Shown: piece after piece, positions 230 through 62,588 of the stretch
Layout: each line of letters begins with the position of its first letter
How positions within the stretch are numbered: the stretch's first letter is position 1
From: an uncultured virus (IMG/VR IMGVR_UViG_3300050188_000002)
Taxonomy: Duplodnaviria; Heunggongvirae; Uroviricota; Caudoviricetes
Virus record (IMG/VR): IMGVR_UViG_3300050188_000002
Strand: one strand, 5' to 3'
DNA length: 64,000 bases
Notes under the pieces: model-generated
What the model saw: the letters and a program-made list of their open reading frames with translations, nothing else
Databases searched by the model: none
Told to the model about the DNA's origin: nothing
Position numbers and translations under genes: made by a program

Positions 230-3200
230 ATGTCAATACGCGGCCAAACATCTGCACAAACAAATAATTTAGCAAGAGTACGTGCCTATAATGACAACTC
301 TATGGGTGGTGTTGTCTCTTATGTCAATCAAAATTTGACTATTTCCGGATCACGTTCATTTTCTGCCCCGCAACATATTATTGTTTCTGCCGCAAAAACT
401 TTGACATTAAGTGGACAATGGACCGGGCGTCTAGTTAAAAATGGGGCAGGGATCATACAGTCTAACGTCGTACAGAATTTGACGCGTTTGGACATCCTGA
501 GCGGTCGATATAACATCGGGTCGGGGGTGAACAACATTGGGCCTACNNNNNNNNNNCTACCCCAGTTGTGAACATCGGCTCCACCGGCATCCTGTACAAC
601 GGCCCGGGCTACAACTCTCAGTCGGTGTTTGCCCTGATGGGAGATAGCGGTGGGATCATCGAAAACCAGTCCGGAAACGGCCCATTCACTGTCACAGTCG
701 CCGACGTGCCGACAACGCCGATCCCGGCGTGGAACGGGACGATCGGCGGCCCCACTGGTCAGAATGTGATTGTTGACCTGGTCGGAACCGGCACCCGTAT
801 GTGGGGTGGGGTCTGGAACGGCACAGGTACCGTTTCCAGGTTCAACACAACGAACGGTCAGACTGTCATCACGTCGGCGACCGGGATGTCGAATGGTGTG
901 GCTTCCCATGCTAACATCGTCACCGCCCCCGGCGTGTTGTCCTTGGACGTCGATGCCAACGTGTGCAACCTTCAAGGTACCGGGACGGTCAATTCCTACA
1001 GCGCGACGCCACACACGTTGACCGTGAACATCGGCGTCACGCATACGTTTGCCGGCGTCCTGGACGGGCCGATCTCGTACAGCACTGGAGCGGTGACGAC
1101 CGAGGTTTGTACGTTCTCAGGTGGGCACACGAATACCGGGGCCTTCATCGCCACGACCGGAAACACCCTCAAGTACGACTACGCGACGAACAACGTCATC
1201 CCAGCCACGGTGTCTTTGACGTTGGCCGGTGGAACCCATCAGTTCCTGAACGTCTCCGGTACGGCGCTGATCGGGGGAGCGACAGCCACCGCCAACGGCA
1301 GCACCTTGAGTTTCAGCAACTGCTCCGGAACGGTGGATCTCAACACGGTCTCCTTGGGGGCATTCACGGCCAATATGTCGGGGGTGTACTCAACGCCCGC
1401 CACATGGAAGGCCACAGGGATGCCTCTGTCGTCCGATATCACGGGTCTGACCAATGGCGGATATCAAGTCTCGACTGATGCCAGCGGCTTCTTGACCGCT
1501 GCTATTCCGTCCTTGTGGAGCCAAGGGGGGACTCTCGTGTCCGCCGGGCCGGCTGTGATCTCCTACCTCGACCCGACCGGGGCTGGTGGGAACCTCGCCA
1601 GCACCCCCGTCACGGTAGGCACGGGCGTCCAGACCATTGGCGGCTTGGTGGCCAACGTCTACGCCCAGAACCCCGGCGGGTATGTCCTGCCACTCTCGAT
1701 CCCGAGCGGCGCCGGCCTCCAGACACCGTCGATCACGAACAACAATCAGGCGCTGTCGATCTCCGGGGTCGGCCTGCTCCAATCGGCAACTGCGGGCGGC
1801 ACGCTCACGATCGACAACAGCCAGACGGTGACGCTCTCGACTACGGTTCAAAACAACACGACGGCATCGTCACTCGCAAAGACCGGAACGGGCACGCTGG
1901 TACTAGCCGCCACTCAGACTTATACCGGTGGGACGACCGTCAGTCAAGGGACGCTCCAGGTAGGGACCGCTTCCCAGTTGTTCAATGCATCGGCTGCTCA
2001 ACCCGTGACCGTGTCCTCGGGCGCCGCGTTCGACCTGAACGGGCACGCAACAACCCTGGGGAATGGCTTGTCCGTGGCGGCCAACAACGGGAGTATCACA
2101 ATCGCGGGCACCGGACCGTCCGGGGCTGGCGCACTTACCAACTCTGTCGCTCAAGCCTATAGCGCAGCCACCGCCAGCCTAGTGTCTCTTGTTCTATCGG
2201 CGGACGCCACGGTCGGCGGTGCCGGAACGACACAACTGCTGTGCAGCGGGTTCATCGCTTCAACGCTGAATACGAACGGTCACACGCTGACCATCAACCA
2301 CTCCGGCACCCCGACCAACGGAGGCACCGGCTTCGGATTACTTCTAACCAACACCGCGATCATAGGTGGCGGTGCGGTGACGATCGCCAAAGGAGAATTG
2401 GCGTGGTACAACCAGAACACCAACGCCGTCTGGCCGGTCGGAACGCCGATCACGGTCGGCGACGGCACGAACACCGCGTCCTTCAAGTTCGTGGGGCAGA
2501 CCCAATTCGGAAACTTCAACGCGCCGATCACGTTGAACAAGGGTGTACTTTGTGACTGGGGTGGCCAGGCTTGGAACCATGTGAACTCGGACATCACGCT
2601 CACTGCGGGCACGACCAACTACCTCACCTCGATCAACACTCCACGGTTTCACTGGGGAAAGATCACGGGCGCCGGCAATCTGTCAACCTCACACGCAACC
2701 TTCCCGCATGCCTATGCACTTGGCTTCTTTAATCAGGTCGCCAACGATTACTCGGGCACCACGGTCCTCGACGGCAGCAACGGCACGATCTGCGCGTGGC
2801 TTGGCGGTGGAATCTCGAACGTCTTGGAGTTTGAATACTTCACGATGCGCCGTGAGGACGTGCGGCAGGTCAACGCTGGCTTCTGCTACAACATGGACCT
2901 GTACACCGGGAGTGGCCGCTTCTTGGCGCACCTTCCGTGGTCCGACGGCATCTGCTATTTCGATGCCAACAACGGTAAAGCAGCCTACAGCCGCGTTCAG
3001 GGCTCGGCGCCAGCCGTTGGCACCGTTTGTCAAACGAACTTCCGCACCTCGACGGTCAATAATTTCCAGTCTATCTGGTACGACGGAACGCAACTGGCGT
3101 CCATCGCCAATGCCATCACGAACCGCCAGATGGGGGCGTACACCCTCGGCACCGGCAACGGCGGGAGCGTCAACGCAACCGAGTGTGAGATCATCGTCCT

Positions 3201-6138
3201 CCGCCAATCGGCGTCTCTCTCGGACCGCCAGTGGGTTGAGGGCTACCTGGCCAACAAGTGGGGGACCACCAGCCGCCTACCGGTCGGCCATCCGTGGAAG
3301 ACTGTAGCACCGACTGGGACGCCCCTCACCCAATTCGGTTCAACCGTCCTGCGTCAGTGGTACGACTTCTCGGACGCCTCGACGGTCTTCACCGACTACG
3401 CCGGAACGATCGCAGCCTCCCCCGGACAGACGGTGGCGTTCATTGCGGACAAGTCCGGGAATGGGAATCACATCCGCCAACTGGACGCGACGAAGCGCCC
3501 GGTCTGGGGCAGCGCGACGATCAACGGGCTGAACACGGTGAAACTCAACAACACCTACGCGTCGTGCCCAAACCCGTTCAACCCGTCGGTCGTCTCGCTG
3601 GCGCCTTCGGGAAACGCGCTCACCCTGGGCGCAGGCAATACGAACCAGCCGACCAACTATTGCCTGATGGACAACCAGTGGGGAGGCGGGACACTGGTCG
3701 GCGGGAACACCGGCAACAACTTCACGCGGTTCGTGGTCAACGGGACGAAGCAGACCTGTCAAGGAATCTCCAGCGGAACGGTCTCGACGCGGGCCGCTCT
3801 GATCTTGGAGAATGCGGACAACATCCCCTGCTCCTTTGATGTGGGGATCATCACGCTGACCGGCAACACAGCATTCGTCCAGAACGGGTACACCCGCGAC
3901 ATGGACAACAGCGCCACGACCTACAAACTTGGCTTTACCTGCAATATGGGTGCGAGCGGCGTTCAGACATTCGCCGGTTCGGTGGTGACCTACACCGGGC
4001 CGACGACCATCAATTCCGGGACGATCGAGGCGTACAACGCCACTGGATGGGCGAGTCCTGTCACGATCAACAACGGTGGAACCTTCAAGGTCTCGAACAC
4101 CGTGCTCCAGACCCAGAATGTGACGATCACCTTGAATGGCGGTGGTACGCTCGTCCACAACGGGCTGACCGCGACCTCCGACTACTGGGTGAACGCCAAC
4201 GCGGCAACCGTGGCCTCTGGCGCCGCAGTCACGATCAACGACACCTCGGTGACCAACGTCACGGGCACCAACAAGGGCACGTTCATGGACGGCGGCCTCA
4301 AGGGCGGTGGGGCTGGGGCCGTGGCAACCATCAGTGTGACCAACGCCGGAAACGGTGTGGTATTCCGCAACAATAACACTACCTTCGCCGGCACGCTGAT
4401 CGTCAACGGCATCGCCAGCGCGACGGTCAATCTCGGAAGCGGCATCGGTGTTGGCGGCTGCACCACTGGCCTCCAGAACGCCGACATCCAGGTGAACGGC
4501 ACGATGGAGATGCTCAACCAGGGTGTCGGTTGGGCGGGCTCCGGGGCGGGGGCGTTCACGATGGGGGCACTCAGCGGGACCGGGGTGGTGATCGGCAACT
4601 TCACTTCGGGGGGTACGACGACCCTGACCGTGGGCAATACGGGCAACGGCGGGACGTTCTCCGGGGTCTTAGCCAATGGCACCGGTAATACGACGGTCCT
4701 CGTGAAAATCGGCGCCGGCACCCAGATCTTGACTGGGGTCAACACATACACCGGCACCACGACTGTCTCCGTCGGCACTCTCCAGATCGGGGATGGTGGA
4801 TCGACGAGCGCAAAACTCGGGACGGGCGCGACGAGCGTCGCATCCGGGGCATCTCTGGTCTTCAACCGCGCTGATTCTCAGACCTATGCCGCAGTCATCA
4901 GTGGTGCCGGCACGGTGACCAAGAACGGGGCAGGCACGCAAACTCTCTCCGCCGCCTGCACATACACCGGCGCGACCTCGGTGCTTGCCGGTATTCTCGA
5001 ACTCGGCGGCGCCGGCACCTTGACGAGCATCACCCCTATCGATATCTCCTCCGGGGCCACCTTCCGCTACGCCAGTTCCGGGACCAGCACGATGTCCGGG
5101 GCGATCACCGGCGCCGGGACGTTCGAGAAGGCTGCAGGCGGCACCCAGTGCATCCTGACCGGCACGAATAGCGGGTTCACCGGCACGTTCTTGTCCACGG
5201 CCGACTACCTCCGGATCGGCGCGAGCGCCGCCGGCAGCGCGAGCGCGGTCTTCAACCTGAATGGCGGCGGCCTGTTGGCGAACACCTCCAGCATCTCGTT
5301 CAACATCGGGGCGCTCACCGGCAGCGGAACGTTCGGGCAGGGCGGGTCCGTGACCAACACCACGGCCACCGTCGGGGCGCTTAACACCAGCACCACGTAC
5401 TCCGGCCAGATCTCGGGCTCGCAGTCGATTGTCAAGGTCGGCACCGGGACGCTCACGCTCTCCGGGACCAACACTCATACCGGATCCACCACGATCAGTG
5501 CTGGGACGCTATCTGTCGCCACCATTGGTAATGGCGGTGTATCTGGAAACCTTGGAGCCGCTGCTACTGCCGCCTCGAACCTAATTATCGGTTCAGCAAC
5601 CCTCGCATACACTGGTGCGACCGCCAGCAGCAACCGCGCCTTCACTCTCGGGGCTGGCTTGAGCAGCAAGATCGACGTGGTGAGCGGAACCACGCTGACC
5701 ATCTCTGGCGGAAACACGGCTACCACCGGGCAGTTGACCAAGAACGGCGCTGGTACTCTTATTCTGACCGGCACCCACCCGGCTACCGGCGGTATCCGCA
5801 GCAACGCAGGTGTACTTCAGTATTCGTCGATGCCGAGTGCCAACACCTTCGTGGTTGGCATGGCGCAGGCCAGCCAGACTACGGCGAACAGTGGCAACTT
5901 CAATTTCAACTTCGCCCCGAACTGGTCAGGCAAGGTAATCAACATCATTATGACCGAGCCGCCTGACGTCAGTACCAATTGGGTTGCTGTCAACTTCAAC
6001 CTCTTGGGTACTGGTACGCCGACCATCCAAGTTAACGGAGTTACTGTAGCCCTCTTCCTCGGACAAGGCGACTCTGGGAACGGTACGCATGTGAACTTCA
6101 GCGGTCTGGGCGGCACTATAACAATAACTCATACATAA
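230..6138 (+). CDS. giant tail fibre/adhesin-like protein with autotransporter passenger-associated beta-strand (PATR-type) repeats and an inserted LamG-like domain (~1960 aa, spans an N gap)
   Basis: ATG at 230 (MSIRGQ). Repeats such as LAKTGTGTLVLAATQTYTGGTTVSQGTLQVG and VKIGAGTQILTGVNTYTGTTTVSVGTLQIG. CTAC flanks both sides of the N gap (543-546, 557-560); collapsing it joins both ORFs in frame. No signal peptide or beta-barrel visible. Confidence 0.75.
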
Positions 6139-11617: not shown

Positions 11618-13587
11618 ATGTCTACAGTGCCCCAACAACCACCAAAGATTCCAGTTCCTACAATGGACGCTTCAAAGCAGACCGTTAAAGAGCTTGTTGC
11701 CAATAAAGAAGGTGCTGCTAAGTTAGGTACAGAATTAAAAAGTATTTTTAATGGGTTGTCCAATTCAATGAAAGGAGTATTTAATACCAAGATCTCAACA
11801 GAGATGCTTAAGGTTCAAACTCAATCATTCAAAGATATTGTAAGTCTTAATACTGAGCAAGTAACCAACGCATATAAACAAACTGAGATATTAAATAGTT
11901 TACTTGATTCAAACCAAAAGCAGGTCGATGCTTATAATAAAATGTTGGTTTCTATGGGAATCATAGAAGAAAACTCTCGTTTATCTGGAATGGAAAAGAC
12001 TGTTGGTGCTGGTATTAAGGATAGAGACGTCAAATCGAAAGTTGGAGAGAATATAAAACCTGTTGGTTCTGGATTTTTAGATTGGCTACGCTGTTAATAG
12101 GTATTGTGGCTGGGTTTAAACTATTACAAGAATCTGTAAAGAGATTTTGTGAATTGATCGAAACTGGGTTGAAGACTATTGAAGGCGTATGGCAAAAGCT
12201 GAAAGAGGTTGTCACAGGGAAAGCCACATCTGAAATAGATAAGATCCGATACCAGACTTTAGAGGAAGCTAGAGCCGCTGTGGCTGGTGTTAAAACTGAG
12301 CTAGAAGCGGCAAGATTACAAAGAACTACTGCAAGAGAGGCGTTGAATTCTGCTAAGTCTGAGGTAACAGAAGCCAAGACCATAGCCTCAAAGTTGGAAC
12401 AGTTGAATAGTGAATACAATCAATGGACTCGTTTTAGTAGAAGTAACATTGAAGAAGGCAATAGACTTAGATCTGAGATCACAAGTCTAGAAGAATTAGC
12501 ATCAGCCAAGAATGTTGCAGCGGCAAGCTCCAAGCTAATGCTTGCTGAAGTTGAATTGGAAATAGCAGAAAAGGCTTTCCAAACAGTATCAACTAAGTAT
12601 GGTATAGTAGCCCAAGCAACGGAAAATTTTACAACTTCTCTTAGAGGAAAAATTCAAGGGTTTGGAGAAGCGCTTGGCAATAAATTGGAACCTGTTCTCA
12701 AATGGTTTAAAGAGTTGCCGTTTGTGAGTACCGTCCTTTCTAAAGGTTCGTCGCTGGTTAAATTTCTAGATACCGTAAAACTATCACTTTTATCTCCTTT
12801 AACGAAACTGTTAGAATTTTTACGCTTACCAGGATTAGCCGGATTACTAAAGAAGATCCCTGTTTTAAATGTAATTATATCTGTTATAAATGTATTCATG
12901 GAAAGATTTGATACCCTTTCTAAACTTTTCAAAAATGGTGACTGGGGAGGACTGGTTGTTGAAGCCGTTAAAGACATTATTGCTATTGTCATAGACTCTA
13001 TTACATTTGGATTCTTAGATCTAAAAACTATATTTAAAACGTTTGATAACATCATAGCAGATATCAAAGAGATATTCTCTGAAGGAAAGGTTCTATCTGG
13101 ATTAGGACATTTATTTAGTGACGTAATAACAGGATTCGCCGGAGCATTAATAAAAGGAGTAGCACATCTTGGTTTAACCCTTGCTAGAATTTTTGGTTAC
13201 CTTGGTGCTAAGGTTGCTAAGTTCTTTGGGTTTGATGTTGGTGATACTGGTAAGATGATAGACGATTGGACCAAAAACCTAGATGAGTTCTTAGATGATG
13301 GTATAGCCGATAGAACCAAAAGCGAGTTCAGATTATCCCCACAACAAGAAAATGAAGTATTTAAATCCCTTAAAGCAGCCGATGATTATGCTGCTTCTCC
13401 GGAAGGCCTCAAGTTCAGAGAATCTGTGAAAATGATGAAAGAATATGAAGACCGTAGTAAGAGACAGGAAATGGAATCATTCGGCTTTAATACTAATAAT
13501 ATGGTAGACTCATCAACCCATAACACTTTCAATAGTACATCAGAGTCTCCTGTTAAGATTAGTCCAAGAACTATAAACAACTATTGA
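11618..13587 (+). CDS. putative tape-measure-like protein, split into two ORFs (11618-12097, 12082-13587) by a -1 frame offset
   Basis: Long helical/coiled-coil, amphipathic sequence downstream of gp26/gp51; the second ORF has only a TTG start with no clear RBS. Confidence 0.5.
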
Positions 13588-13612
13588 CAACGTTTGTGAC
13601 TTATGATATAAT
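13584..13612 (+). promoter_or_regulatory. sigma70-type promoter for the late sigma gene
   Basis: TTGACA-17nt-TATAAT. Confidence 0.75.
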
Positions 13613-13635
13613 CCTGTTAACTCTAACAGGATTAT

Positions 13636-14169
13636 ATGTCTAAGATATATATTAAGAAGAAACCAACTAACAAAGGTACTGACTATATTGATAATAAGTT
13701 GGTAACCGAAGAATTGATCAAGTATTCTAACGAGTTTAGGTGCTGTAAAGAAAAAAATTTACCAAGACCAAAGATGTCAGATACCCTTGGTAAGGCTATA
13801 CTTGACATAGCAAACAATATGATCAAGTCACATTACTTCTCTGGTTATACATATAAGGATGAGTTTGCTGCAAATGCTATAGAGTGTATGCTTAGGTATG
13901 CCCACAACTATAATCCCAAGATGGCTGGACCAAACGCTGGCTTCTCTTATCTTTCTATGCTTTGTTATAGAAAATGTCTAAAGACTATTGCAATCGAGAA
14001 AAAGCACAATGAAATAAAGAAACGTGCTATCACTAGAGCAATCATAAATGATAGACACAGAGATTATTCAGACGATTGTGATGTGGTACATTTCATTAAA
14101 GAGAACGACCTAACAGCCGAAATAGAACAACCAAAGAAGAAAAAGAAAATAAAGAAGGTTAAAAAATGA
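13636..14169 (+). CDS. T4 gp55-like late transcription sigma factor
   Basis: YIDNK...LGKAILDIANN...FSGYTYKDEF...AIECMLRYAHNYNP...FSYL. Confidence 0.85.
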   Translation: MSKIYIKKKPTNKGTDYIDNKLVTEELIKYSNEFRCCKEKNLPRPKMSDTLGKAILDIANNMIKSHYFSGYTYKDEFAANAIECMLRYAHNYNPKMAGPNAGFSYLSMLCYRKCLKTIAIEKKHNEIKKRAITRAIINDRHRDYSDDCDVVHFIKENDLTAEIEQPKKKKKIKKVKK

Positions 14170-14372
14170 AATATGAAACAATCCATACTGAGTTTACAAA
14201 TGACGAATTAAGACTCATTGTTAGTAATATATCAAAGGACTATGATCCAATCTCACAAACTCTTCTAGACGAGTATAAGAATGTATTCGAGGGATTAGGT
14301 CATGTGGTCTTTAATGCAATGGTGATAAAGGCTATCCAAACTATGATTGATAAGGAGACTACAAATGAGTGA
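14166..14372 (+). CDS. hypothetical protein
   Basis: 68-aa coupled ORF. Confidence 0.6.
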   Translation: MKYETIHTEFTNDELRLIVSNISKDYDPISQTLLDEYKNVFEGLGHVVFNAMVIKAIQTMIDKETTNE

Positions 14373-14730
14373 TGAAACGCAAGATCAACGTAATTTTTCT
14401 GGTAACGCTCTTCTAAAGGCCACCAATGAGACTATCAATTGGACACCTGAGATGCGAGAAGAGTATAAGAAATGTATGACAGATCCTATTTACTTTACTG
14501 AAAAGTATGTTAAAATCATCAATCAAGACGAAGGATTGATCAACATTAAGATGTATGACTACCAGAAGAGATTGATGGAAGCCATACATACCCAAGACAG
14601 AACTGCGATTCTAATGCCTCGTCAGTCTGCTAAGTGCGTCACCGGAGATACCAAAGTAACAGTTGGTACGCCTCCGGTAGGAATCAAGCGGCTGATTTAC
14701 AATTTATTATTTAGGACCAAAGATGTATAA
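14365..14730 (+). CDS. terminase large subunit (gp17-like) N-terminal fragment fused to a split-intein N-part
   Basis: GNALLK...EYKKCMTDPIYFTEKYVKI...MYDYQK...PRQSAK (Walker A), then CVTGDTKV (intein block A) and a stop after 31 aa; AAGGAG RBS. Confidence 0.85.
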   Translation: MSDETQDQRNFSGNALLKATNETINWTPEMREEYKKCMTDPIYFTEKYVKIINQDEGLINIKMYDYQKRLMEAIHTQDRTAILMPRQSAKCVTGDTKVTVGTPPVGIKRLIYNLLFRTKDV

Positions 14731-15016
14731 GAAAATTTTGATTGACAAAAGTGGTAACGGAATCATCCTTTCACAGGATGGAATCGAATGGATGAAAGTT
14801 AACCACCCAGAAAGTCCGTGGGCAGTGTTTTACAGTCCGCCTAAGAATATACGAGACAATATAGGTTTGATAGAACTGTACAATTCTCTAGGCAAGAAAG
14901 CATTTCAAACCTATTGTAGACCCGAGTTAATAGAAATTCCATCAGAAGTGGACTACAAAGTAGTTACCATCAACAACTCTGAGGTGATTGCTGATTCGAA
15001 ACATCTGTGGTATTAA
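14723..15016 (+). CDS. hypothetical phage protein
   Basis: 97 aa; no intein C-terminal HN motif or terminase motifs. Confidence 0.65.
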   Translation: MYKKILIDKSGNGIILSQDGIEWMKVNHPESPWAVFYSPPKNIRDNIGLIELYNSLGKKAFQTYCRPELIEIPSEVDYKVVTINNSEVIADSKHLWY

Positions 15017-15467
15017 CTTTTGTAAGTTCTTCGAACTCTTTAAGAAGCCTCTCATAGGCTTCTTTTAGTGTCATAGGGAGAATTTTGCAATCTTCCCCAT
15101 ACTTCTTGACTTGTTCTTTAATCCAGTTATACTGCTCTGGACGGTTCTCCTCCATCCAAAATGCGAACTGCATAGAGGCTTTGTGGGCCGATAACAAACG
15201 GCTCCAATTATGATGGGTTTTACATAAAACTATACAATTATTTGTATCCAACCACCAACGTTTTAATTCCCTTGGTAGTAAATGATGACAGTCTGCTGGT
15301 TTATCACAGGCGCCGCAAATGGCACACTTACCAAACTCCCCATTTCCTGATTTCTTTTTTGCTACTAAAGTCCAAATTTTGTAGGCTTTATTTCTCCAAA
15401 ACTTTGAATTCGGATCTAACTTCGATTTTTCTAGTTTTGATAATTTCTGTTTCTTTTGTTTGGCCAT
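14970..15467 (-). CDS. NinG-like HNH endonuclease
   Basis: CAICG...DCHH...RWWLDTNNCIVLCKTHHN; likely start MAKQKK. Confidence 0.7.
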   Translation of the reverse strand: MAKQKKQKLSKLEKSKLDPNSKFWRNKAYKIWTLVAKKKSGNGEFGKCAICGACDKPADCHHLLPRELKRWWLDTNNCIVLCKTHHNWSRLLSAHKASMQFAFWMEENRPEQYNWIKEQVKKYGEDCKILPMTLKEAYERLLKEFEELTKVNTTDVSNQQSPQSC

Positions 15468-15487
15468 ACTCTTACTTATCTTTAAAC

Positions 15488-16939
15488 ATGGACGCATCAC
15501 AACCCTCAATTTTAAATGACATACTATCTTCCAAATACTTGGCTGTTGGTGGTATTGCTGCCCTTACGGGCGGCTTTGGTATCTTAATGGCAGGATGGAA
15601 GAACGTCATCGGATTCATTACAAACATTCGTAGGTTCTTTATCATACGCGAAGAATTAAATAACCCACGATTAGCCCGTTGTGGATTACGTTATCTATCA
15701 CTGGAATTCAACCAACTAATCGGTGAGCCTTTCATATACAACGTTCCTGTATTGTATGGTAAGGATAAGAAGAAGAAATACCCAGTGTTCAGACTTCTTC
15801 CATACTCAGCTACTCTTCGTAAGGGTACAAAGTTCATCTTCTATACAACTGATGACAATGAAACTCTAACAGTAACATATCCAAGATGGATGTTTGTAAG
15901 TGGGTTCTTCGTCAAGAAGGCTCATGAACTAATGGTTGTGGAGATTGAAGAGGAAAGTAACAAAGAAGCAATTTCCATTCATAATTTAAACGTTAACATG
16001 GTTACTGGTACTAGATTCTCCGTTGCGTCGTTAGATGGTCCATCGGGTAGAGGCGGACGTGATGAGGCCGATGAAGCCCCCGGCTATAAGAATAGCGGAA
16101 GGAACCAATTAAAAACACCACAGTCCGGTACTTATTTGAACGGCATCTGGTTCTATGAACGCCACGATGAGTTTGTTAAGTGTGGAGACTGCTTGAACGG
16201 TAAACGCGACGACTACATGGTAGACTTTAGAAGTGGTGCAACTGATGTATACTTCTTAAGTCAAGAGCAGGAAACGTTTGTACAAGAGTTCTCTAGATGG
16301 TTATCCTTAGGAAATTGGTATAGAGAGCGATCGATACCTTGGAAGCGCGGACTATGTATCTCCGGAATTCCTGGCTCCGGTAAGACTTCATTCGTTAGAT
16401 ATCTCGGTATGAAATTCAACATGCCAATATTTGTAATGGATCTTTCTTCCATGACAAATGAAGATTTAAAGAACAAATGGAATAATTACATCGCTTGCAA
16501 TGCACCGTGCATTGTTCTATTTGAAGACTTAGATTCCATATATGAAGGTCGTGCCAATATTACCAACATACAAGGAGTTAAGCCCGGTGTATCATTCGAT
16601 TGCTTCCTAAACGTTATTGACGGTGTGCAGGCTAACGACGGCATCTATACCATCATCACAACCAATAGACCAGAAGTGTTAGATGAAGCAATTGCCAAGC
16701 ATGATATTGGACAGGGTGGTAAGTACATTCCTACCCGTCCAGGTAGAATAGACTCGGTGATGCATATTGGACATGCATCGGAAGACATTAAGAATAAGAT
16801 TGCTGCTAAGATTCTAGACAAATGGCCAACTGAAATACCATCGGTTCTAACGGAAGGACCAACTGATACAAGCGCTCAGATGCAAGAAAGATGTATCAGA
16901 CGTGCTATCCAACTAATTGAAAAGGAGTTTACGAAATGA
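15488..16939 (+). CDS. BCS1-like membrane-anchored AAA+ ATPase
   Basis: WYRERSIPWKRG, Walker A GIPGSGKTS, Walker B VLFEDLD, TTNRPE, RPGRID; N-terminal TM helix. Confidence 0.85.
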   Translation: MDASQPSILNDILSSKYLAVGGIAALTGGFGILMAGWKNVIGFITNIRRFFIIREELNNPRLARCGLRYLSLEFNQLIGEPFIYNVPVLYGKDKKKKYPVFRLLPYSATLRKGTKFIFYTTDDNETLTVTYPRWMFVSGFFVKKAHELMVVEIEEESNKEAISIHNLNVNMVTGTRFSVASLDGPSGRGGRDEADEAPGYKNSGRNQLKTPQSGTYLNGIWFYERHDEFVKCGDCLNGKRDDYMVDFRSGATDVYFLSQEQETFVQEFSRWLSLGNWYRERSIPWKRGLCISGIPGSGKTSFVRYLGMKFNMPIFVMDLSSMTNEDLKNKWNNYIACNAPCIVLFEDLDSIYEGRANITNIQGVKPGVSFDCFLNVIDGVQANDGIYTIITTNRPEVLDEAIAKHDIGQGGKYIPTRPGRIDSVMHIGHASEDIKNKIAAKILDKWPTEIPSVLTEGPTDTSAQMQERCIRRAIQLIEKEFTK

Positions 16940-17715
16940 TTAAGACGGCGTTTATTAGCGACACCCATGGTAACTGGGATATAATGGAACATACCCTTGA
17001 TTGTATAATTAGAGACGGCGTTAAATTAATCGTGCACAGCGGAGATATATGCCCACACTTTGATCAACGTCCAGGCACCGCACTTGATAGGATAGGCCAA
17101 CAGGAGTGGTTCAAGGAATCTTATGTAAGATACTTCCATGAACATCCTGACATAGACTTTGTTATGATCGCCGGCAACCACGACTTCTGTTTTGTAAAAC
17201 CACCATTTTATACACAAAAGTTCAATTGGTATTGGAAGTTCGATGGTAAAGATGATTGGCTTCCATGGGAACAGATCGGATTTGTTCCGCCAGAAATATC
17301 AAAGTATCTACCTAAGAACTTACATATTCTAAACTGTGAAAGTAAAGTAATCCAAGGCATAAAGTTTTTCGGGGTCCCTCATTCTAAAATTTTTTATAAT
17401 TGGTGTTTTAATGTTTCCACTGAGATGTCCAAAGAACTTTGGAACATGGTTCCAACCGATACTCAGATACTTATAAGTCATGGTCCACCTCACGGCATCG
17501 GAGACTATATTAAGAAACGAGATGAACACGTTGGTTGTGAGCATCTTACAGCCCGAGTGCCAGACTTAACTAGTCTAAAGTACATATGCTGCGGTCATAT
17601 TCATCCCGGATACGGGATATATGAGATTGGTAATACGAAGGTTATAAATGCTGCTCTATCAAACGATAACAATCATATCAAGAGCAAACCAATCGTAATA
17701 GATATTGAAAACTAA
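16936..17715 (+). CDS. calcineurin-like metallophosphoesterase
   Basis: ISDTHG, HSGD, AGNHD, SHGPP, GHIH. Confidence 0.9.
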   Translation: MIKTAFISDTHGNWDIMEHTLDCIIRDGVKLIVHSGDICPHFDQRPGTALDRIGQQEWFKESYVRYFHEHPDIDFVMIAGNHDFCFVKPPFYTQKFNWYWKFDGKDDWLPWEQIGFVPPEISKYLPKNLHILNCESKVIQGIKFFGVPHSKIFYNWCFNVSTEMSKELWNMVPTDTQILISHGPPHGIGDYIKKRDEHVGCEHLTARVPDLTSLKYICCGHIHPGYGIYEIGNTKVINAALSNDNNHIKSKPIVIDIEN

Positions 17716-17737
17716 AGAAAGGATGGTATAATAAAGT

Positions 17738-18046
17738 ATGTCATTAGAAAAGAAACTACTAGATCCTCACACCCAATTTCAAACGGTATATGACTTGGTA
17801 TGTCAATCTCAAGGGGCCTTCTTCCACATGGAAGTTCAAAACCCAGTCATGCCATTCCCTACTACATCGCTCATGTATTCTCCCCAAGATGGGACTCCTA
17901 TCATGGTTGGTTTGATTAGTTTCGTCATGGGTCAACCCCATTTTGATTCCAAGGAACAATCAAAATACTTTAGTCTTATCAAGGACAAATGTAAAAGGTT
18001 TCCAGGTTTAGGACGCATGGTCAGTATAAAGGATTGTCTAAAGTAA
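17738..18046 (+). CDS. hypothetical protein
   Basis: 102-aa ORF in operon. Confidence 0.6.
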   Translation: MSLEKKLLDPHTQFQTVYDLVCQSQGAFFHMEVQNPVMPFPTTSLMYSPQDGTPIMVGLISFVMGQPHFDSKEQSKYFSLIKDKCKRFPGLGRMVSIKDCLK

Positions 18047-18435
18047 TGGAATTCTTATTCACAGATAAGACGACTAGTAAGATAGTTATTCAAAAGAAAG
18101 TATTTACTATACCAAATGGATGGATTGAGATAGTATCTGACATGCTTCTGGATGTAGAACATATCTGTAATAATAATTATGGAATTATTCCTATGTACTC
18201 GTTCATTGGAGAATCATATGGAGTATTGAAAGTCGAGTATAAGTGGGGATATGAAAAGCATGAACCACTTGGTAGAGGGGTAGAGGCAATAGAATATACG
18301 ATAGGGTTGGCTAAAAATAAAGCCTCTAAGACTTGTTGTCTTACTGGTGCAGATGGGTTTTTATGCGGATCGGACTTCCAAGTTGCAACCCTGTGTGAAG
18401 AGAAGATGAAATTATTTAAATTTGAAAGGAAATAA
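18046..18435 (+). CDS. hypothetical phage protein
   Basis: GW...E.YG.L...S.TC...G...TLC pattern; coupled start. Confidence 0.6.
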   Translation: MEFLFTDKTTSKIVIQKKVFTIPNGWIEIVSDMLLDVEHICNNNYGIIPMYSFIGESYGVLKVEYKWGYEKHEPLGRGVEAIEYTIGLAKNKASKTCCLTGADGFLCGSDFQVATLCEEKMKLFKFERK

Positions 18436-18439
18436 TTAT

Positions 18440-19027
18440 ATGTTGAATATTGATGAATGTTATGAAACGGTTAAAGATTGGCACGTTACCTTTGGGCAGC
18501 CTGCTTCCAATACAGTTCTGAGCCAATTAGAACCAGCACGTGAGACTCTTCGTGCTAGGCTAGTATCCGAAGAGTATTGTGAGTTTGTTCGAGCTTTGTT
18601 CTTGAATAACAAAGTAGAGATGGCTGACGGTCTTGCTGATACCATTTGGGTACTGTGTGGTACTGCTGTTGAACTTGGAGATAATCGTATCCGATTGTTC
18701 AATGTCAATCCATTAAATGTGACTGATCTATTCTCATATCATTTACATAGTCCTATGAATCTAGCATTTGATCTCCTCAAGTACTTTGAGCGGTCGTTTA
18801 GTGATATGCAGGCCCAAGCTGTATGGAATGAAGTAAAGCGGTCTAACTTTGCTAAATTATGGACTAAGGAAGAAGTTGATGGGTTAAACAATTCTGAAGA
18901 TGTAGTTGGTTGGACCAAAACTTTTATTGAATCTAAATGTCAATATGTAGTAATGGATGAGACCGGCAAGATTCGCAAACCACCATCTTGGACTGCTCCT
19001 AATATCGCCGCTATTATTAATTCTTAA
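18440..19027 (+). CDS. MazG/PRA-PH-like nucleotide pyrophosphohydrolase
   Basis: LVSEEYCE, ADGLAD, EVKRSNFAK, GKIRKP. Confidence 0.8.
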   Translation: MLNIDECYETVKDWHVTFGQPASNTVLSQLEPARETLRARLVSEEYCEFVRALFLNNKVEMADGLADTIWVLCGTAVELGDNRIRLFNVNPLNVTDLFSYHLHSPMNLAFDLLKYFERSFSDMQAQAVWNEVKRSNFAKLWTKEEVDGLNNSEDVVGWTKTFIESKCQYVVMDETGKIRKPPSWTAPNIAAIINS

Positions 19028-19206
19028 AATGAATCAACCAGAGGAACGAATGAGTCAAAACTACAATATGATGGTTGACGAAAAGAGTGGTGTGTATAAA
19101 CTAACGTCTGTGACTGGAACTGTATACTACATGGTTAAGTTTCATGGAACGTTTGACGGAATCAAATATACACCAACTAATAAAGAATCTTGGAGGAAGA
19201 TATAAT

Positions 19207-20025
19207 ATGGCTTGTGAAGTTAAAATTATTGAAGACAGTATTAATATTTCTGGTAATCGCATCACCACCTACCAGTTAAAGTACTGGCGTGGAATCCATA
19301 GCGAGTTGATGACGCACAGAGTGTTCTCTCGTAACGCTAGTTCAAGTCGCGCAATTCCTATTGAAAAGATGATTTCTCAGGTTAGAACTGATCCGGCTGG
19401 ACCTGTTCATTGGGGTCTAAATCAGAAGGGTATGCAAGCCTACTCTGAACTTCCTTCTGATAAGATAGAAGTGGCTAAGGCTTTGTGGAAGCAGGCGGCA
19501 AATTCAGCAGCCGATCAAGCAGAACATATGAATGTATTAGGCCTTCATAAACAAGTTGTAAATCGCGTATTAGAACCATTTCAATACATACATGTTGTAC
19601 TGACTGCAACTGAGTTTAATAATTTCTTTGACCTACGTGATCATCCTGCTGCTCAGCCTGAGATTCAAGAATTGGCTATAGAAATGCGTAAAGCAATGGA
19701 AGTGTCTATTCCCAAGACTTTAATGTCAGGTCGTTGGCATATTCCGTATATCATGGAACACGAACGGCATGTATATCCAATTGAGACTTTGCTTAAGATC
19801 TCAACCGCCAGATGTGCTAGGGTTAGTTATATAACTCACGGTGAGACTTCCGTATCAGTTGAGAATGATGTTATCCTTCATGATAGGCTGGTTGGTTCGG
19901 TTCCAATTCATGCCAGTCCAACAGAACATCAGGCGATGGCTTGTTCTGATACTACGTGGTATAAGAACTTTAGAGGGTGGAAGATGTATAGATATATGGT
20001 TGAAGAGTCATTGCAAAAACGTTAA
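19207..20025 (+). CDS. thyX: flavin-dependent thymidylate synthase (phage type)
   Basis: ELMTHRVFSRNASSSRAIP, HKQVVNRVLEPF, AQPEIQELA, STARCARVSY, HASPTEHQA. Confidence 0.85.
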   Translation: MACEVKIIEDSINISGNRITTYQLKYWRGIHSELMTHRVFSRNASSSRAIPIEKMISQVRTDPAGPVHWGLNQKGMQAYSELPSDKIEVAKALWKQAANSAADQAEHMNVLGLHKQVVNRVLEPFQYIHVVLTATEFNNFFDLRDHPAAQPEIQELAIEMRKAMEVSIPKTLMSGRWHIPYIMEHERHVYPIETLLKISTARCARVSYITHGETSVSVENDVILHDRLVGSVPIHASPTEHQAMACSDTTWYKNFRGWKMYRYMVEESLQKR

Positions 20026-25620: not shown

Positions 25621-27810
25621 TTACTTGGGAGGATTGTAATGTCTATTAATAATTTCTGGTATAATCTTGTAATTTATACTGGTCTTACAATGTTCTATAA
25701 GTTTCATGTCGGTGGTCCAAACTGTACTCATATTGCAAGTTTCCTTAACATAATCTATTCTAGTATAACATTTTGGATCTATTGTACTCCATTTATACCC
25801 ATTGTGTTCAGTGTCATGGGCTGCTATTGTTTTAACCCCCGAATTTATAAAGTGCTGTACTATAGGAGATCTGGACATAGAACTACCATCAACGAATACA
25901 AATGATGGAATGTCGTATTCTTTTTCAGACCACGACGTCACCCCTGGTCTGACTTCGTAATTCCAATTGATATGATCCTTATATATAGTTCGTAGTTTAT
26001 CAGCCCAAGCATTATTAACTTCCATAGGAACGTTCTGTCCTTGTTCTATGGTATTCAGTTTAACTCCACCATTTAATAGAATAGACGTGGACCAATAACC
26101 TCCACCAAACTCATATACAAGTTTATCTTTTAATTCTAATACAGTTATGATATCATGTAACATACCTATATGGGTACCACATTGATACGAATACCGATCT
26201 GTCTTAATAGCCTTATCCATTATGGTCTGCAATTCGAACACATCTTTTGGTCCCCATTCATCGAATAAGTTAAACTTATGCCCAATTGGTTTAAACTTAT
26301 TCATACCACTATCAGTTGGAAACCTATCATACATCAGTTGTGCTATCTCCTTATCATACTTCTTATAAGGACGTAATAGATGTGAATCGGTATAATGTCC
26401 ATCTGCTAATGAAATCTTATTGTATCCCCAGTTTATTTTATCAATCCTGACAACCGGGATATAGTCCATGAACTTTAATATACATCCACTATTGTTTATA
26501 TCATCAGTTAACATCTGCTCATCAGTAACAAACGTCACTTTATATTTATTGTAATATGATTTACAATACTCATCAAATGTAGTATTGCTATTAAATGCTT
26601 TTGTGAATACCTCGGACTTGGCAGCAACCCACATCATGCAATACTTATCATTGTTGTAATACGGTTTTTTCCTTGAAATGCATATAGTTTCTTTATCTAC
26701 TAATGATATCAAGCTATCATAGTACTTATTCTGTAATGGCATTGAGTCGGAATCTGATATCAACATAATGCCGTCTATGAACGATGACGCATATAATCTG
26801 CTTATCTGAGACTGCCATACATAGTTTCTGCCAAACGTTGGATCAAACGTTTGTGATACTTCTGAGTTCTTTAGTCTAAGTATAATGCCATATTCATTCT
26901 CTTCTATAGAGTTCTCGTTGCATATAAACGTATAGAATGTCTTATACCCAAACTTATTCCACATATATGATACTGGTTCATAGAAGTCATGATATTCATC
27001 GTCAATGGACCCAAACGATACCCAAGCCTTAGGATTTATTCTATTAGTCCATTTTAAAGACTTAGACCTCAAATAGTCTATATCATCTGTTACTATCTTC
27101 TTATTTTCATTATTCATTGGTGCTCCGTGGTATTTACTTATTCCATCTCCTATAACATCTCTAATATCTTTTCTAACATCTAATCTTTCTCTAACCTTAA
27201 AGTCATATAACTTAACTTGAGAACTGTATTCGATACACCTATCTTTTACAATCGGATATATAACATTTCCTAAAAACAATTCATCTTCACCATAATACCC
27301 CCGCGACTTTGGTATAAACTCTTGTGATAGAGACCTTACATGTCTTATATTATCATTTCCCCTAATAGAGAATAACCCACATGGTATAGCAGATTTCTGA
27401 CCTGGGTGGTCTCTCATGATACAATAATCATATATAGTATTCAACCAATCGCTTATAACATTAATTTCTCTATGACTTATTTTGGCATCTATATCTCTAG
27501 ACAATAGTATATCACAATCTACGTTAAACCGCTGAAGACTTCCCTTATGTCCATCAGTCTTAAAGAAACTATATGAGTCTATCAATGGGATTAATCTCGA
27601 TGTTATATCTTCTCTAACATCATCACCAAACCCTATATGAATGCTCCAATCAGACCCATACATATCTCTAACATCCTTTATGTTTCTTATGGCCCCGTCT
27701 ACGTATAAGTCTTTATTACCATACAAAACGAATGAAACTATCTTGTTCTCGGTGATTAATTTCGGAATAAATTTATCTATAACTAAAGTATTACCTGAAA
27801 TAAATTTCAT
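25621..27810 (-). CDS. multidomain glycosyltransferase-like protein with a C-terminal SAM-methyltransferase-like domain
   Basis: VSFVLYG...Y..GA...SRDIDAK...MRDHP; ISDSDSMP; EFGGGYWST...VFVDG...AHD. Confidence 0.65.
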   Translation of the reverse strand: MKFISGNTLVIDKFIPKLITENKIVSFVLYGNKDLYVDGAIRNIKDVRDMYGSDWSIHIGFGDDVREDITSRLIPLIDSYSFFKTDGHKGSLQRFNVDCDILLSRDIDAKISHREINVISDWLNTIYDYCIMRDHPGQKSAIPCGLFSIRGNDNIRHVRSLSQEFIPKSRGYYGEDELFLGNVIYPIVKDRCIEYSSQVKLYDFKVRERLDVRKDIRDVIGDGISKYHGAPMNNENKKIVTDDIDYLRSKSLKWTNRINPKAWVSFGSIDDEYHDFYEPVSYMWNKFGYKTFYTFICNENSIEENEYGIILRLKNSEVSQTFDPTFGRNYVWQSQISRLYASSFIDGIMLISDSDSMPLQNKYYDSLISLVDKETICISRKKPYYNNDKYCMMWVAAKSEVFTKAFNSNTTFDEYCKSYYNKYKVTFVTDEQMLTDDINNSGCILKFMDYIPVVRIDKINWGYNKISLADGHYTDSHLLRPYKKYDKEIAQLMYDRFPTDSGMNKFKPIGHKFNLFDEWGPKDVFELQTIMDKAIKTDRYSYQCGTHIGMLHDIITVLELKDKLVYEFGGGYWSTSILLNGGVKLNTIEQGQNVPMEVNNAWADKLRTIYKDHINWNYEVRPGVTSWSEKEYDIPSFVFVDGSSMSRSPIVQHFINSGVKTIAAHDTEHNGYKWSTIDPKCYTRIDYVKETCNMSTVWTTDMKLIEHCKTSINYKIIPEIINRHYNPPK

Positions 27811-30062
27811 ATCAGTTTATTCTTAAAATGCGGTACCTCGCCGGTAATGGTATTTACCTCCAAATACTTACAAAATGGTTCCCAACCATCTTTGAATGAA
27901 TATTCTAAGAATGGTACCCCCATATGTTTACATAAGCTCCTGATCTTATCCTTATGATTTGATAAGTCTTTATCGCTTTGTAATCCTCTCCAACAAGATA
28001 TATCTATGAGGTCAGTTATAGTCTTTGTATTATTGTACTTTGCCCCTTGTAGATACTTGTCTAACCCATTCCTATTCCATGATTCTTTAACTCTTTCTAT
28101 GTCCCTATTAATATATATAACCTTAACATTATGAGTATATTGTAAGATTCCATGTAAAAATTCTGCATTATAAAACGGAGTATCAGCAAAGAAGTTATAA
28201 CCTTTACTCAATGCTGCCTTATAATTAAAACATACATGAGCACTTTTAAACCCACACCTATCAGCCATATGACACATATTAGTGGTTCCGCTCCTAGGTA
28301 ACGATGCTAGAATTATTATAGGTCTTTTTAACTCTAATTCATACCCTCTCTTTAAATCCTCTAACTCAGACTCCCACGGCAATGAACACCCTTCTAACTT
28401 TCCCCAAGGCTTAGGAGCCTCTGGAAACTGATTCGTTCTTATGTTAGAACCATGTATATGCCAAGTTTTTATACTCTTAGAAGGATTTATAACCTCATAT
28501 CCGGCTCTCATCAATCTCTCAGTAAATGCTCCATCACACCCCCATATTCCCAAACCAAATGATATTTCTGGTATGTCTTTTATCTTACCCCTAAAACCCC
28601 ACACATCAGCAGATACATACCTCGGATTATCAACCCTATACGATTTACTACTATCCAACCCTAATCCTTTTAACTCTACACCATCATACCTAGACAATGA
28701 TATAGCCTGTTTAGAACTCAACTTTAATGTATATATAATACTATCATCTAAAATTATATCAGAGTTTCCAAATAAGTTTATTGTATTATTACTTTCGTAA
28801 GGCTTTATATAGTCTATGAATTCCTTAAACATCATCCGATCTTGTTTGGTAATCTCTATTACATTGATATAAGGATTCTTTTTATTTACCATTAAACAAT
28901 AATCTAACTCTAATTGTCTAATAGGGTTTGGATGTTTAAATACTTGTACGAAATAGTTTATACGCTTGGCCGCGGTAACATCCACTATAACAGAGTCCTT
29001 CGTAGTATACTTTACTCGTTTGTATAATAACTTAACCTTAAACCGACTATTGTATCCGATTAACTGTCCATAGTTATCATACCTCAACTCATGGTTATCA
29101 AATCGTATTACCCCATCTTTTACTGTATAATCATGGTTATCTCTAGTCTTCCCGCCCTTATCAAAGACCTTCACACAAGTGAATTGACCTCCCCAAGTTT
29201 CATCTCCATCAGTATTAGGATTGATATACTGTTCCCAACTACTCTCTTCTATAGACTTTAATATGTCTATAGGAATATCAATCGTCTTCTTACTTAACAT
29301 ATTAATACCAACATCATACTTCTCTTTGCACATCTTCAACCAATCATTCTTTAACCCCGGAATTATAGTTATAACCCCAATAGGTAATTTACCCGAGTCT
29401 AATAACTCATTAATCTTACGTCCTATAACGTCATATTTACTCTCTTCATTACTCTCGGATTGTGAACTATGATGATAACTTATTCCTCCCCAACGATATA
29501 CCATAGAAGAATCATAATCTATGGTATAACATCTCCCACCAGTCTTTGTGCCTAATGCTTTAAATAAATTCTGATCACATATGTCAGCGTCATATAAACC
29601 CCCAGGCGCTATATACCCTCCAACCGTATCGTATGTATTACGACTATACGCAAATAAATGGCAATATGTATCATTTGGTTTATAGTCTATTACGCTATCT
29701 ACTGTCCCGTAATATCTACCATATAACTGTATCCAATTATGTGTAGGATTATTTTCTATATGTTTAACATATTGTTCTAAAAACTTAGGAAGGAACACAT
29801 CGTCATCGTCAAATGGTATAACCCAATCACCAGTAGATCTTATAACCCCCTCATGCATAGCCTGACAATGGTTCTTAGGCCTCTCAGATAAGTTATATAC
29901 CTTTACCAGTGGATGATCGTATATAAAGGTTTGCCGTGGACATGTATTAACTAGTATCAATTCCTTATTATCATAAGTCTGATCTAAGAAACATTGTACG
30001 ACCTCTCCCAAGTATTGGTGTCTACCATATACTATACAGATGCATGACATCTTAATACTCAT
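27807..30062 (-). CDS. GT2 glycosyltransferase fused to a second GT-like domain and a sulfotransferase-like domain
   Basis: FLDQTYDNKELILVN, DDDD; NSDI; SLPRSGTT and DGWEPFCKYL. Confidence 0.75.
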   Translation of the reverse strand: MSIKMSCICIVYGRHQYLGEVVQCFLDQTYDNKELILVNTCPRQTFIYDHPLVKVYNLSERPKNHCQAMHEGVIRSTGDWVIPFDDDDVFLPKFLEQYVKHIENNPTHNWIQLYGRYYGTVDSVIDYKPNDTYCHLFAYSRNTYDTVGGYIAPGGLYDADICDQNLFKALGTKTGGRCYTIDYDSSMVYRWGGISYHHSSQSESNEESKYDVIGRKINELLDSGKLPIGVITIIPGLKNDWLKMCKEKYDVGINMLSKKTIDIPIDILKSIEESSWEQYINPNTDGDETWGGQFTCVKVFDKGGKTRDNHDYTVKDGVIRFDNHELRYDNYGQLIGYNSRFKVKLLYKRVKYTTKDSVIVDVTAAKRINYFVQVFKHPNPIRQLELDYCLMVNKKNPYINVIEITKQDRMMFKEFIDYIKPYESNNTINLFGNSDIILDDSIIYTLKLSSKQAISLSRYDGVELKGLGLDSSKSYRVDNPRYVSADVWGFRGKIKDIPEISFGLGIWGCDGAFTERLMRAGYEVINPSKSIKTWHIHGSNIRTNQFPEAPKPWGKLEGCSLPWESELEDLKRGYELELKRPIIILASLPRSGTTNMCHMADRCGFKSAHVCFNYKAALSKGYNFFADTPFYNAEFLHGILQYTHNVKVIYINRDIERVKESWNRNGLDKYLQGAKYNNTKTITDLIDISCWRGLQSDKDLSNHKDKIRSLCKHMGVPFLEYSFKDGWEPFCKYLEVNTITGEVPHFKNKLI

Positions 30063-62309: not shown

Positions 62310-62588
62310 ATGCATATCAACATTAACATTGGGGTTTTCCATCCTTCCCTTTGGAATAAGTTTGATGAGATAGTTGAGTTGTATTGGAATTCAACGTTTG
62401 ATGACATTAAGAAGAAGTTTAACGTAGAGTTCGACGCCGATGGTTTTATTCCTAATGGTTGGAATGAGATCAAGTTAACATCAACTGAAGGTATACTTTT
62501 CATATGGAAAGAGATTGAGTGGGACTTGAAGATTGATCTTGGAAACCATTTGACTAAACTCTTGGGTGGAATTAGGATAACAACATGA
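62310..62588 (+). CDS. hypothetical protein
   Basis: 92 aa, coupled to tilS. Confidence 0.55.
   Translation: MHININIGVFHPSLWNKFDEIVELYWNSTFDDIKKKFNVEFDADGFIPNGWNEIKLTSTEGILFIWKEIEWDLKIDLGNHLTKLLGGIRITT

Follow-up and report, generated by a model that had tools for sequence, protein, structure and literature searches.

The DNA analysed here is a stretch of 64,000 nucleotides, referred to below as the window, from an uncultured virus of the class Caudoviricetes (IMG/VR record IMGVR_UViG_3300050188_000002). Its forward strand contains an open reading frame (ORF) at positions 14347–14730, of which the likely start is the ATG at 14365 and the stop is the TAA at 14728–14730. A Shine-Dalgarno sequence, AAGGAG, is positioned 8 nt on the 5' side of this ATG. 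The 121-residue product is the N-terminal region of a large terminase of the T4 type (TerL; gp17, Terminase_6), which is broken off at the lysine of the Walker A motif and continues into a short tail with the beginning of an intein. The product can be divided into two parts, where IntN stands for the N-terminal and IntC for the C-terminal piece of a split intein:

14365–14634, forward strand: TerL N-extein, residues 1–90, assigned by TerL homology; the last residue is the Walker A lysine (...Met-Pro-Arg-Gln-Ser-Ala-Lys).
14635–14727, forward strand: candidate IntN of 31 residues (91–121), with Cys1 and a block A motif.

The N-extein was compared by tblastn with 50,697 phage records, of which 2509 match residues 1–90, at one place each. 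The best match is the TerL of Methylophilales phage Melnitz, with 48.8% identity and an E-value of 6e-22. The fragment also matches phrog_5989, annotated as 'terminase large subunit', in PHROGs (E 8.6e-20). It has no match in the Pfam scan, as expected for a stretch upstream of the ATPase core, and megablast of positions 12000–20000 against the phage records gives no match. Of 80 loci retrieved for IMG/VR relatives, one returned no row, and all 79 readable sequences have an unbroken RQxGK[T/S] motif where the extein of the fragment stops. According to the alignments, the fragment retains several residues of the ATP site, namely the YQ pair about 20 residues upstream, the arginine of RQ, and the lysine. 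The threonine of the Walker A motif would have to be provided by a partner protein, the lysine being encoded in the fragment itself.

The first residue of the tail, Cys91, directly follows the Walker A residue Lys90 and occupies the position of an intein-type nucleophile. The start of the tail, Cys-Val-Thr-Gly-Asp-Thr-Lys-Val, is the block A (N1) motif of inteins, and the pattern C[VIL]xGDTx[VI] has a single occurrence, at 14635, in the six translated frames of the window, which comprise 127,996 residues. The tail is composed of a first strand of ten residues, which includes Cys1 and block A, and a divergent remainder of 21 residues. Nine of the first ten residues are identical to the start of the IntN of Vibrio phage vB_VmeM-32. 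The full tail aligns in pairwise BLAST with the IntNs of three IMG/VR relatives (L103, L105, and L148), and its alignment with the IntN of a fourth (L122) runs to residue 114; the alignments contain a gap of 3–5 residues. Positions common to the tail and the aligned IntNs of the family are Gly-x-Ile and Tyr/His-Asn-Leu-Leu. The two other forward frames after 14635, inspected by eye for a rescue by frameshift, contain nothing resembling an IntN. A preliminary description of the locus, generated by a model from the sequence without database searches, had read the ORF as a TerL N-extein broken at the P-loop, followed by a block A start and a stop, and its coordinates and homology are confirmed.

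The same description stated that the remaining part of TerL and the IntC are absent from the 64 kb, and the Pfam, tblastn, and six-frame profile searches of the window agree with it. None of the 74 window ORFs scanned has a Pfam match to Terminase_6, Terminase_6C, or the Hint/intein families. A tblastn search of the window with the C-half of a relative returns only the block A motif itself and no real match. Two profile hidden Markov models (HMMs), one built from 12 IntC-TerL proteins (A1) and one from 33 IntC regions (A2), were run with the --max option against stop-to-stop frames of at least 20 residues in all six frames of the window, and their best E-values are 0.39 and 2.2, respectively. 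No IntC that ends in His-Asn and is followed by a +1 nucleophile on the remaining TerL is present in any of the six frames, and the Walker B motif, the catalytic glutamate, and the nuclease domain of TerL are not encoded in the window. Neither the 14 kb upstream of the fragment nor the 49 kb downstream of it contain a C-half of TerL. Interruption of the gene by a group I intron was also considered and was rejected because the window contains no downstream TerL exon.

Split inteins in the P-loop of TerL form a large family. The IntC of vB_VmeM-32, used as a query against a collection of 5.8 billion proteins, identifies 106 proteins that start with an IntC, mostly 550–600 residues long, and a profile of the IntC alone matches 916 clusters. 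An exhaustive IntC search of 1.84 billion representatives gives 3279 matches with E-values up to 1e-3, 1128 at 1e-10, and 413 at 1e-30. The IntC begins within the first 17 residues, which corresponds to the split form, in 125 of the best 150 of these matches. The IntC profile matches the solved inteins VidaL (6vgv, E 2e-11), gp41-1 (6qaz, E 6e-11), and CatC (6dsl_B, E 2.1e-9), and inteins related to the IntC of the family are found in 303 phage records. The novelty claimed in the preliminary description was therefore overstated, since the P-loop split family has at least 3279 public representatives and unlinked halves occur in two GenBank phages.

The layout of the family was surveyed in 80 IMG/VR loci of uncultured T4-like phages with 10-kb flanks (L085–L164). 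In 59 of them, the N-half ends with RQxGK/C (the slash marks the junction between extein and intein) and a short tail, and the IntC-TerL gene follows on the same strand 146–3563 bp further on, measured from the stop of the N-half to the conserved block of the IntC. This bears out the expectation of the preliminary description that the halves of fractured phage genes are usually kept close together. The intein is contiguous and read through in six loci; one locus (L119) has a tail of 114 residues; and in 14 loci no N-half was detected by the search pattern, mostly because the end of the contig is too near. The K/C junction of the fragment is shared by 61 split N-halves and the six read-through genes among the 80 loci, and by the two GenBank phages. 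The IntNs of the family, represented by 42 distinct sequences, are 31–59 residues long, and the IntCs about 115–125 residues. The +1 residue at the P-loop site is threonine or serine in all relatives. Where the gap between the halves exceeds 700 bp, the largest ORF in it most often encodes a DUF559/MTES_1575 (Vsr-like) nuclease, and T5orf172 and zinc-finger proteins also occur. Dassa et al. 2009 (PMC2677866) use the term 'fractured gene' for split-intein halves that flank a free-standing homing-nuclease gene in one locus, and Kelley et al. 2016 (PMC5050341) name the Lys/Thr insertion as the 'classic' P-loop intein site in TerL. In the papers that could be searched, the descriptions of terminase split inteins are confined to linked 'fractured genes' and metagenome-derived tools. 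No paper on the P-loop atypically split family or on unlinked terminase halves was found in this searchable literature.

Two further observations concern the IntC family itself. A 250-kb viral contig contains two IntC-TerL starts 908 bp apart (L089:10001–11300); the two IntC regions are almost the same, and the stretches compared differ in the first few residues only, so a tandem duplication of the start of the C-half is possible from the sequence. In seven other proteins (P0242, P0243, P0258, P0298, P0322, P0207, and P0244) the IntC family is positioned at the N-terminus of non-terminase P-loop proteins, where His-Asn is followed by threonine or serine and by continuations that resemble the Walker A motif of the SbcC/gp46 or DnaB type. 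Judged from these sequences, GK/[T/S] seems to be a target of this intein lineage in several families of ATPases.

Halves of TerL that are not linked are present in three other genomes. In vB_VmeM-32 (KU160494), the N-half is VmeM32_00107, annotated as 'similar to terminase; part of conserved domain', which ends in ...SRQLGK and a 34-residue tail with cysteine as its first residue. The C-half, VmeM32_00001 at 1102–3216, starts with a 118-residue IntC that ends in His-Asn and continues with Thr-Thr-Val and a normal TerL; at Walker B, the same ORF contains another intein, a contiguous mini-intein. The halves are 76.7 kb apart on opposite strands. The words 'intein' and 'split' each occur 0 times in the paper on this phage (PMC6483233).

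The second genome is that of the cultured Salicola phage SCTP-2 (MF360958, 440 kb), in which TerL is apparently encoded in three scattered pieces, identified by reading of the ORFs:

About 429.4 kb (L169:1456–1848), reverse strand: N-piece of 130 residues, with RQLGK/C and a 43-residue IntN.
256,428–257,321 (L167:4001–4894): piece of 297 residues, with the matching IntC at its N-terminus and another short, IntN-like tail at its C-terminus.
About 216–218 kb (L174:1030–3114), reverse strand: ORF of 694 residues, with an IntC-like start and the remaining TerL.

The N-piece is about 172 kb from the piece with the IntC, and the third piece is about 38 kb further; the last piece also holds a contiguous intein. 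The pieces appear from their sequences to be joined by two atypically split inteins, one in the P-loop and one next to Walker B, the second and third junctions being our own reading of the ORFs. In the searchable text of the literature, no paper was found to mention the three-piece TerL of SCTP-2; its PolB mini-intein alone is mentioned. The third genome is an IMG/VR record of 30 kb (G003), which has an IntC-TerL gene at 2095–4134 on the forward strand and, at about 26.5 kb on the other strand, an N-half that ends in SRQTGK/C and 55 further residues. The distance between its halves is about 22 kb.

Two other candidates were not counted. The complete record G001 (L092; 305,782 bp, with terminal repeats) has an N-ORF (L175:1474–1833, reverse strand) without an IntN, which ends in ...SRQMG and six residues, before the Walker A lysine, and an IntC-TerL gene 14 kb from it; a small exon or piece may be missing, as far as the sequence indicates. 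Records of the phiM12 type with two terminase coding sequences contain an unrelated split further upstream.

From the anatomy, homology, and insertion site of the fragment, together with the absence of a partner from the window and the occurrence of the same architecture in linked and unlinked form in relatives, we infer that this phage has a partner gene elsewhere and that the products are spliced. We put the probability at about two in three that the fragment is the working N-half of the sole TerL gene of the phage, interrupted by a P-loop split intein and completed by trans-splicing with the product of a distant gene. In this scheme, the 90 extein residues and the 31-residue IntN would be translated from the gp55 operon described below. 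By analogy with the relatives, the partner protein encoded outside the window would consist of an IntC of about 115–125 residues ending in His-Asn, a threonine or serine, and the remaining TerL. The short IntN would dock on the IntC to give a complete HINT fold. Cys91 would start the N-S acyl shift, and the +1 threonine or serine of the partner would attack. Cyclisation of the terminal asparagine of the IntC and joining of the two exteins would then rebuild the Walker A motif and the full-length motor. The gene looks expressed, judging from its Shine-Dalgarno sequence, its overlaps with both neighbours, and its intact frame. A spare N-terminal copy next to a complete TerL would be unusual because none of the 2509 matching phage records has a second place of match.

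Several observations weigh against trans-splicing with a distant partner. Close linkage is the norm of the family, and the profile searches of the window detect neither an IntC nor an IntC joined to TerL. The fragment is part of a contig of 167,681 bp, about 104 kb of which are outside the window. This length is not the longest-contig value of any of the 106 IntC proteins or of any of 120 of the 916 IntC clusters, a comparison that is informative for clusters without a longer contig (P0099, P0119, and P0190 have one). The fragment is a neighbour of gp55 and accessory genes, whereas the N-half of vB_VmeM-32 is a neighbour of a small-terminase gene. Its Walker A motif reads Ser-Ala-Lys, whereas the residue before the lysine is glycine in 79 of 79 unbroken relatives, and alanine in this position is unique among the approximately 150 junctions inspected. 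The split and contiguous members of the family without this glycine are only L114, L125, L127, and L135, all of which have serine and none alanine. In T4 gp17, substitutions of this glycine are reportedly lethal. The tail was taken for an intein N-part in the preliminary description, and intein N-terminal profiles match it weakly or not at all. The model TIGR01445 (intein_Nterm) has no match to the tail even at E-values up to 10, and it matches the tail of vB_VmeM-32 weakly (E 0.016). An HMM of the 42 distinct IntNs of the family aligns only with residues 1–10 of the tail and gives 5.9 bits, a score that ranks seventh among the frames of the window and is reached by 8 of 1000 shuffled sequences. 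Pfam, NCBIfam, and PDB searches with the 31-residue tail alone, which is a very short query, give no match.

Many of these properties would fit a decaying remnant. A fractured TerL gene could have lost its C-half by rearrangement or replacement, so that the phage uses another complete or split TerL and the ORF is a leftover that has not yet acquired stops. The alanine in place of the nearly invariant glycine, the divergence of the tail from the family IntNs after residue 10, and its apparent shortening by 3–5 residues are consistent with such decay. The same applies to the nuclease gene that follows the fragment where the C-half does not, to the unusual position beside gp55, and to the linkage of the halves in 59 of the 80 loci. 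However, a second TerL N-terminus is present in none of the 2509 records. The reading frame is undamaged, as are the Shine-Dalgarno sequence and the overlaps with the adjacent genes, and the YQ pair, arginine, and lysine of the ATP site are retained. Moreover, serine replaces the glycine in the family genes L125, L127, and L135, which are otherwise complete and read through for at least 629 residues. We consider decay unlikely, though it is the next most probable reading.

The interaction of the tail with an IntC was addressed by structure prediction of the complex. Residues 79–121 of the fragment (43 residues), paired with the IntC alignment of the family, reach a score of 0.33, while the best of three controls is 0.01; the runs agree in at least 82% of the contacts, and the predicted local distance difference test value (pLDDT) of the partner is at least 56. 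The mark passed by this pair is attained by 116 of the 157 solved complexes used for calibration and by 2 of the 215 mismatches, and within it scores up to 0.60 include only 18 of the 157 solved complexes and both mismatches. The pass may reflect likeness only, because the IntC is heterologous and solved split inteins exist. The prediction lends weak support to the docking of the tail on an IntC.

Docking could also take place without splicing. The 121-residue product might bind an IntC-TerL protein non-covalently through a dead intein, or it might act as a free N-domain of TerL, with a role such as regulation or partnership with the small terminase. An intein that has lost its chemistry and kept its binding could account for the divergence of the tail and the change in the Walker A motif, and the complex prediction, which weakly favours docking, is silent on catalysis. 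Nevertheless, ATP binding is unlikely for a P-loop into which some 150 intein residues are inserted, and Cys1 and block A are retained in the tail. Kelley et al. 2016 (PMC5050341) argue that TerL inteins must splice for the pentamer to form. A stand-alone role is disfavoured by a word-limited search of proteins of 66–212 residues, which finds only the window's own protein and no family of 90-residue TerL N-domains. A function without splicing is improbable in our assessment.

The genes and the promoter-like site around the fragment are arranged as follows:

13584–13612, forward strand: sigma-70-type promoter-like site, TTGACA, 17 nt, and TATAAT, with TG; 12 of 12 consensus positions, a consensus match only.
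13636–14169, forward strand: gene of a gp55-like late sigma factor (phrog_234, 'late sigma transcription factor', E 8.5e-32), with which the apparent operon begins.
14166–14372, forward strand: ORF of 68 residues without a Pfam or PHROG match, with an 8-nt overlap with the start of the TerL fragment.
14723–15016, forward strand: ORF of 97 residues, the ATG of which overlaps the end of the TerL fragment; its only match is phrog_16527 (E 0.004).
14970–15509, reverse strand: HNH endonuclease gene, a candidate free-standing homing nuclease (phrog_8048, E 1.8e-6; phrog_22514, E 3.4e-6; HNH_2, E 0.0059).

The gp55 gene, the 68-residue ORF, the TerL fragment, and the 97-residue ORF are plausibly co-transcribed, because a sigma-70 consensus precedes gp55 and no strong terminator is present before the fragment. 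A terminator scan upstream of the fragment gives two weak sites only, both of them inside the gp55 gene and one on each strand. The sigma-70-driven gp55 operon proposed in the preliminary description is consistent with this arrangement. The T4 late-promoter motif TATAAATA is found five times in the window and 4.6 times are expected, which corresponds to chance frequency. The HNH gene is located 240 bp downstream of the TerL fragment on the opposite strand, and a comparison with 160 related IMG/VR loci and with phage-record loci revealed no homologue of it. A second nuclease gene, with a DUF723 domain (phrog_681 endonuclease, E 4.8e-24), lies at 31831–32364 on the reverse strand between the genes of the ClpP-like protease and PhoH, and homing-type nucleases are scattered through the genome.

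The position in the gp55 operon allows a more elaborate scheme, in which the packaging motor is built from two unlinked genes of different transcription classes. The N-half would be made early, from the sigma-70 promoter and together with gp55, and the C-half with its IntC would follow late, along with the structural genes, so that active TerL would appear only after both programmes have run. The ligation would be carried out by a minimal IntN of 31 residues that lacks 3–5 residues of the usual hairpin. Atypically split P-loop inteins would, in addition, serve as breakpoints at which T4-like genomes could be rearranged across an essential gene, as in vB_VmeM-32, SCTP-2, and G003. Taken as a whole, this combination is quite unlikely.

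Logan contigs, produced by a different assembler, cover positions 12000–18000 in three pieces. One of them, 7466 bp long, runs from 13743 to past 18000 with 0 differing letters and without an indel, joint, or loose end. This contig crosses the end of the extein, and the Logan contigs argue against a misjoin at the 14635 junction. The agreement is not independent evidence, because the run may be the assembly's own source. If two molecules or strains had been joined near 14660–14730, the stop and the tail would not be real, and the low k-mer depth of the contig (about 6.8) and the occurrence of the stretch in only one public run leave some room for such an artefact. Two other runs of the same study contain next to none of the stretch. 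Against it stands, besides the second assembler, the position of the break exactly at a known intein site and with the start of an intein, which a random chimera would not give. The misassembly near 14660–14730 that the preliminary description named as a possible flaw is not seen in the Logan contigs, and we regard an artefact as highly improbable.

The remaining genes of the window include a baseplate hub, tail-fibre-like genes, and many accessory genes, such as those of ThyX, MazG, PhoH, a ClpP-like protease, and polynucleotide kinase. Pfam and PHROG scans detect no portal, capsid, sheath, or small-terminase gene in the window. Ahead of the baseplate genes, at 568–6138 on the forward strand, is the gene of a 1856-residue protein with six passenger-associated-transport repeats (PF12951, E 1.4e-30), the usual home of which is autotransporter passengers. 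The reverse strand at 27807–30062 encodes a 751-residue protein in which a family 2 glycosyltransferase is fused to a sulfotransferase domain. It is adjoined by a second glycosyltransferase gene at 30059–30955 on the same strand, and both are positioned within a block of large tail-fibre-like genes. A 134-residue ORF at 35054–35458, also on the reverse strand, is a synthetase fragment (PF00749, E 4.8e-15); its match to the catalytic domain of class I Glu/Gln-tRNA synthetases is limited to the central part, profile positions 157–226 of 314. Three genes on the forward strand encode a cyclic-phosphate-processing receiver domain (46172–46552; PF20274, E 1.1e-8), a polynucleotide kinase-phosphatase (58607–59566; phrog_505, E 6.3e-58), and a PP-loop protein similar to TilS (62585–63250; PF01171, E 1.2e-30). 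Their combination suggests, by sequence, an RNA repair or modification set.

The kind of element found in the fragment is known and abundant; its unlinked layout and its minimal, divergent IntN are unusual. If the partner exists, the phage would represent a fourth lineage, beside the three described above, in which the packaging ATPase is trans-spliced from the products of distant genes. A split intein would then release an essential gene from the constraint of being encoded in one piece and would provide a breakpoint for rearrangement in phage genomes. The idea is open to bench experiments, since the host on which vB_VmeM-32 was isolated is in culture. With 31 residues, the IntN is at the lower end of the length range in a large natural family of atypically split inteins with Cys1 and Thr+1, which could interest protein engineers; the IntN of the fragment is not the best-looking member of this family.

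Among the known systems, the fractured P-loop TerL loci of the IMG/VR survey have the same host protein and the same K/C junction as the fragment, and the exteins of their N-halves are 26–41% identical to its extein. A nuclease gene adjoins their N-halves, as the HNH gene adjoins the fragment. In contrast, their C-half is within 146–3563 bp, whereas none is found within 49 kb downstream of the fragment, and their nucleases are usually Vsr-like or T5orf172, whereas that of the fragment is an HNH protein encoded on the other strand. The 31-residue IntN of the fragment is the short extreme of the 31–59 residues in the family and is only weakly alike. A fractured gene has both halves around a free-standing nuclease in one locus; at the locus of the fragment, one half accompanies the nuclease gene.

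The vB_VmeM-32 system resembles the fragment in its RQxGK/C type of N-half with a short IntN, and its C-half is unlinked and seen. Its N-half follows the small-terminase gene and has the Walker A glycine, neither of which is true of the fragment. The P-loop N-piece of SCTP-2 has a short IntN like that of the fragment, whereas the additional split near Walker B is particular to SCTP-2. AceL-TerL and GOS-TerL, the original papers on which are reportedly Thiel 2014 and Bachmann and Mootz 2015, are, like the consensus intein Cat (PDB 6DSL), listed among the naturally split TerL inteins, and the three have a short TerL IntN of 25–37 residues that is comparable to the 31 residues of the fragment. 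A review (PMC11766414) gives IntN lengths of 25, 37, and 30 residues for AceL-TerL, GOS-TerL, and Cat, respectively, IntC lengths of 104–115 residues, and Cys+1. The family of the fragment has Thr/Ser+1, and its relation to Cat is distant. Because of this difference in the +1 residue, AceL-TerL, GOS-TerL, and Cat are placed at another site of TerL. The preliminary description had assigned AceL-TerL and GOS-TerL to a different, C-terminal site; the difference in site holds.

The contiguous P-loop TerL inteins of mycobacteriophages (TerL1-a), Ackermannviridae, CP220, and VAP7 share the insertion point between the Walker A lysine and threonine with the fragment, according to Kelley et al. 2016 (PMC5050341). 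In Vibrio phage VAP7 and Campylobacter phage CP220, the intein is inside a single TerL ORF, unlike in the fragment. Cyanobacterial DnaE and Nanoarchaeum PolB are essential enzymes that are trans-spliced from the products of distant genes. Their inteins are encoded on cellular chromosomes and are split at the canonical site, into a long IntN and a short IntC. In contrast to these unlinked split inteins of cells, the fragment belongs to a phage packaging motor and carries a short candidate IntN.

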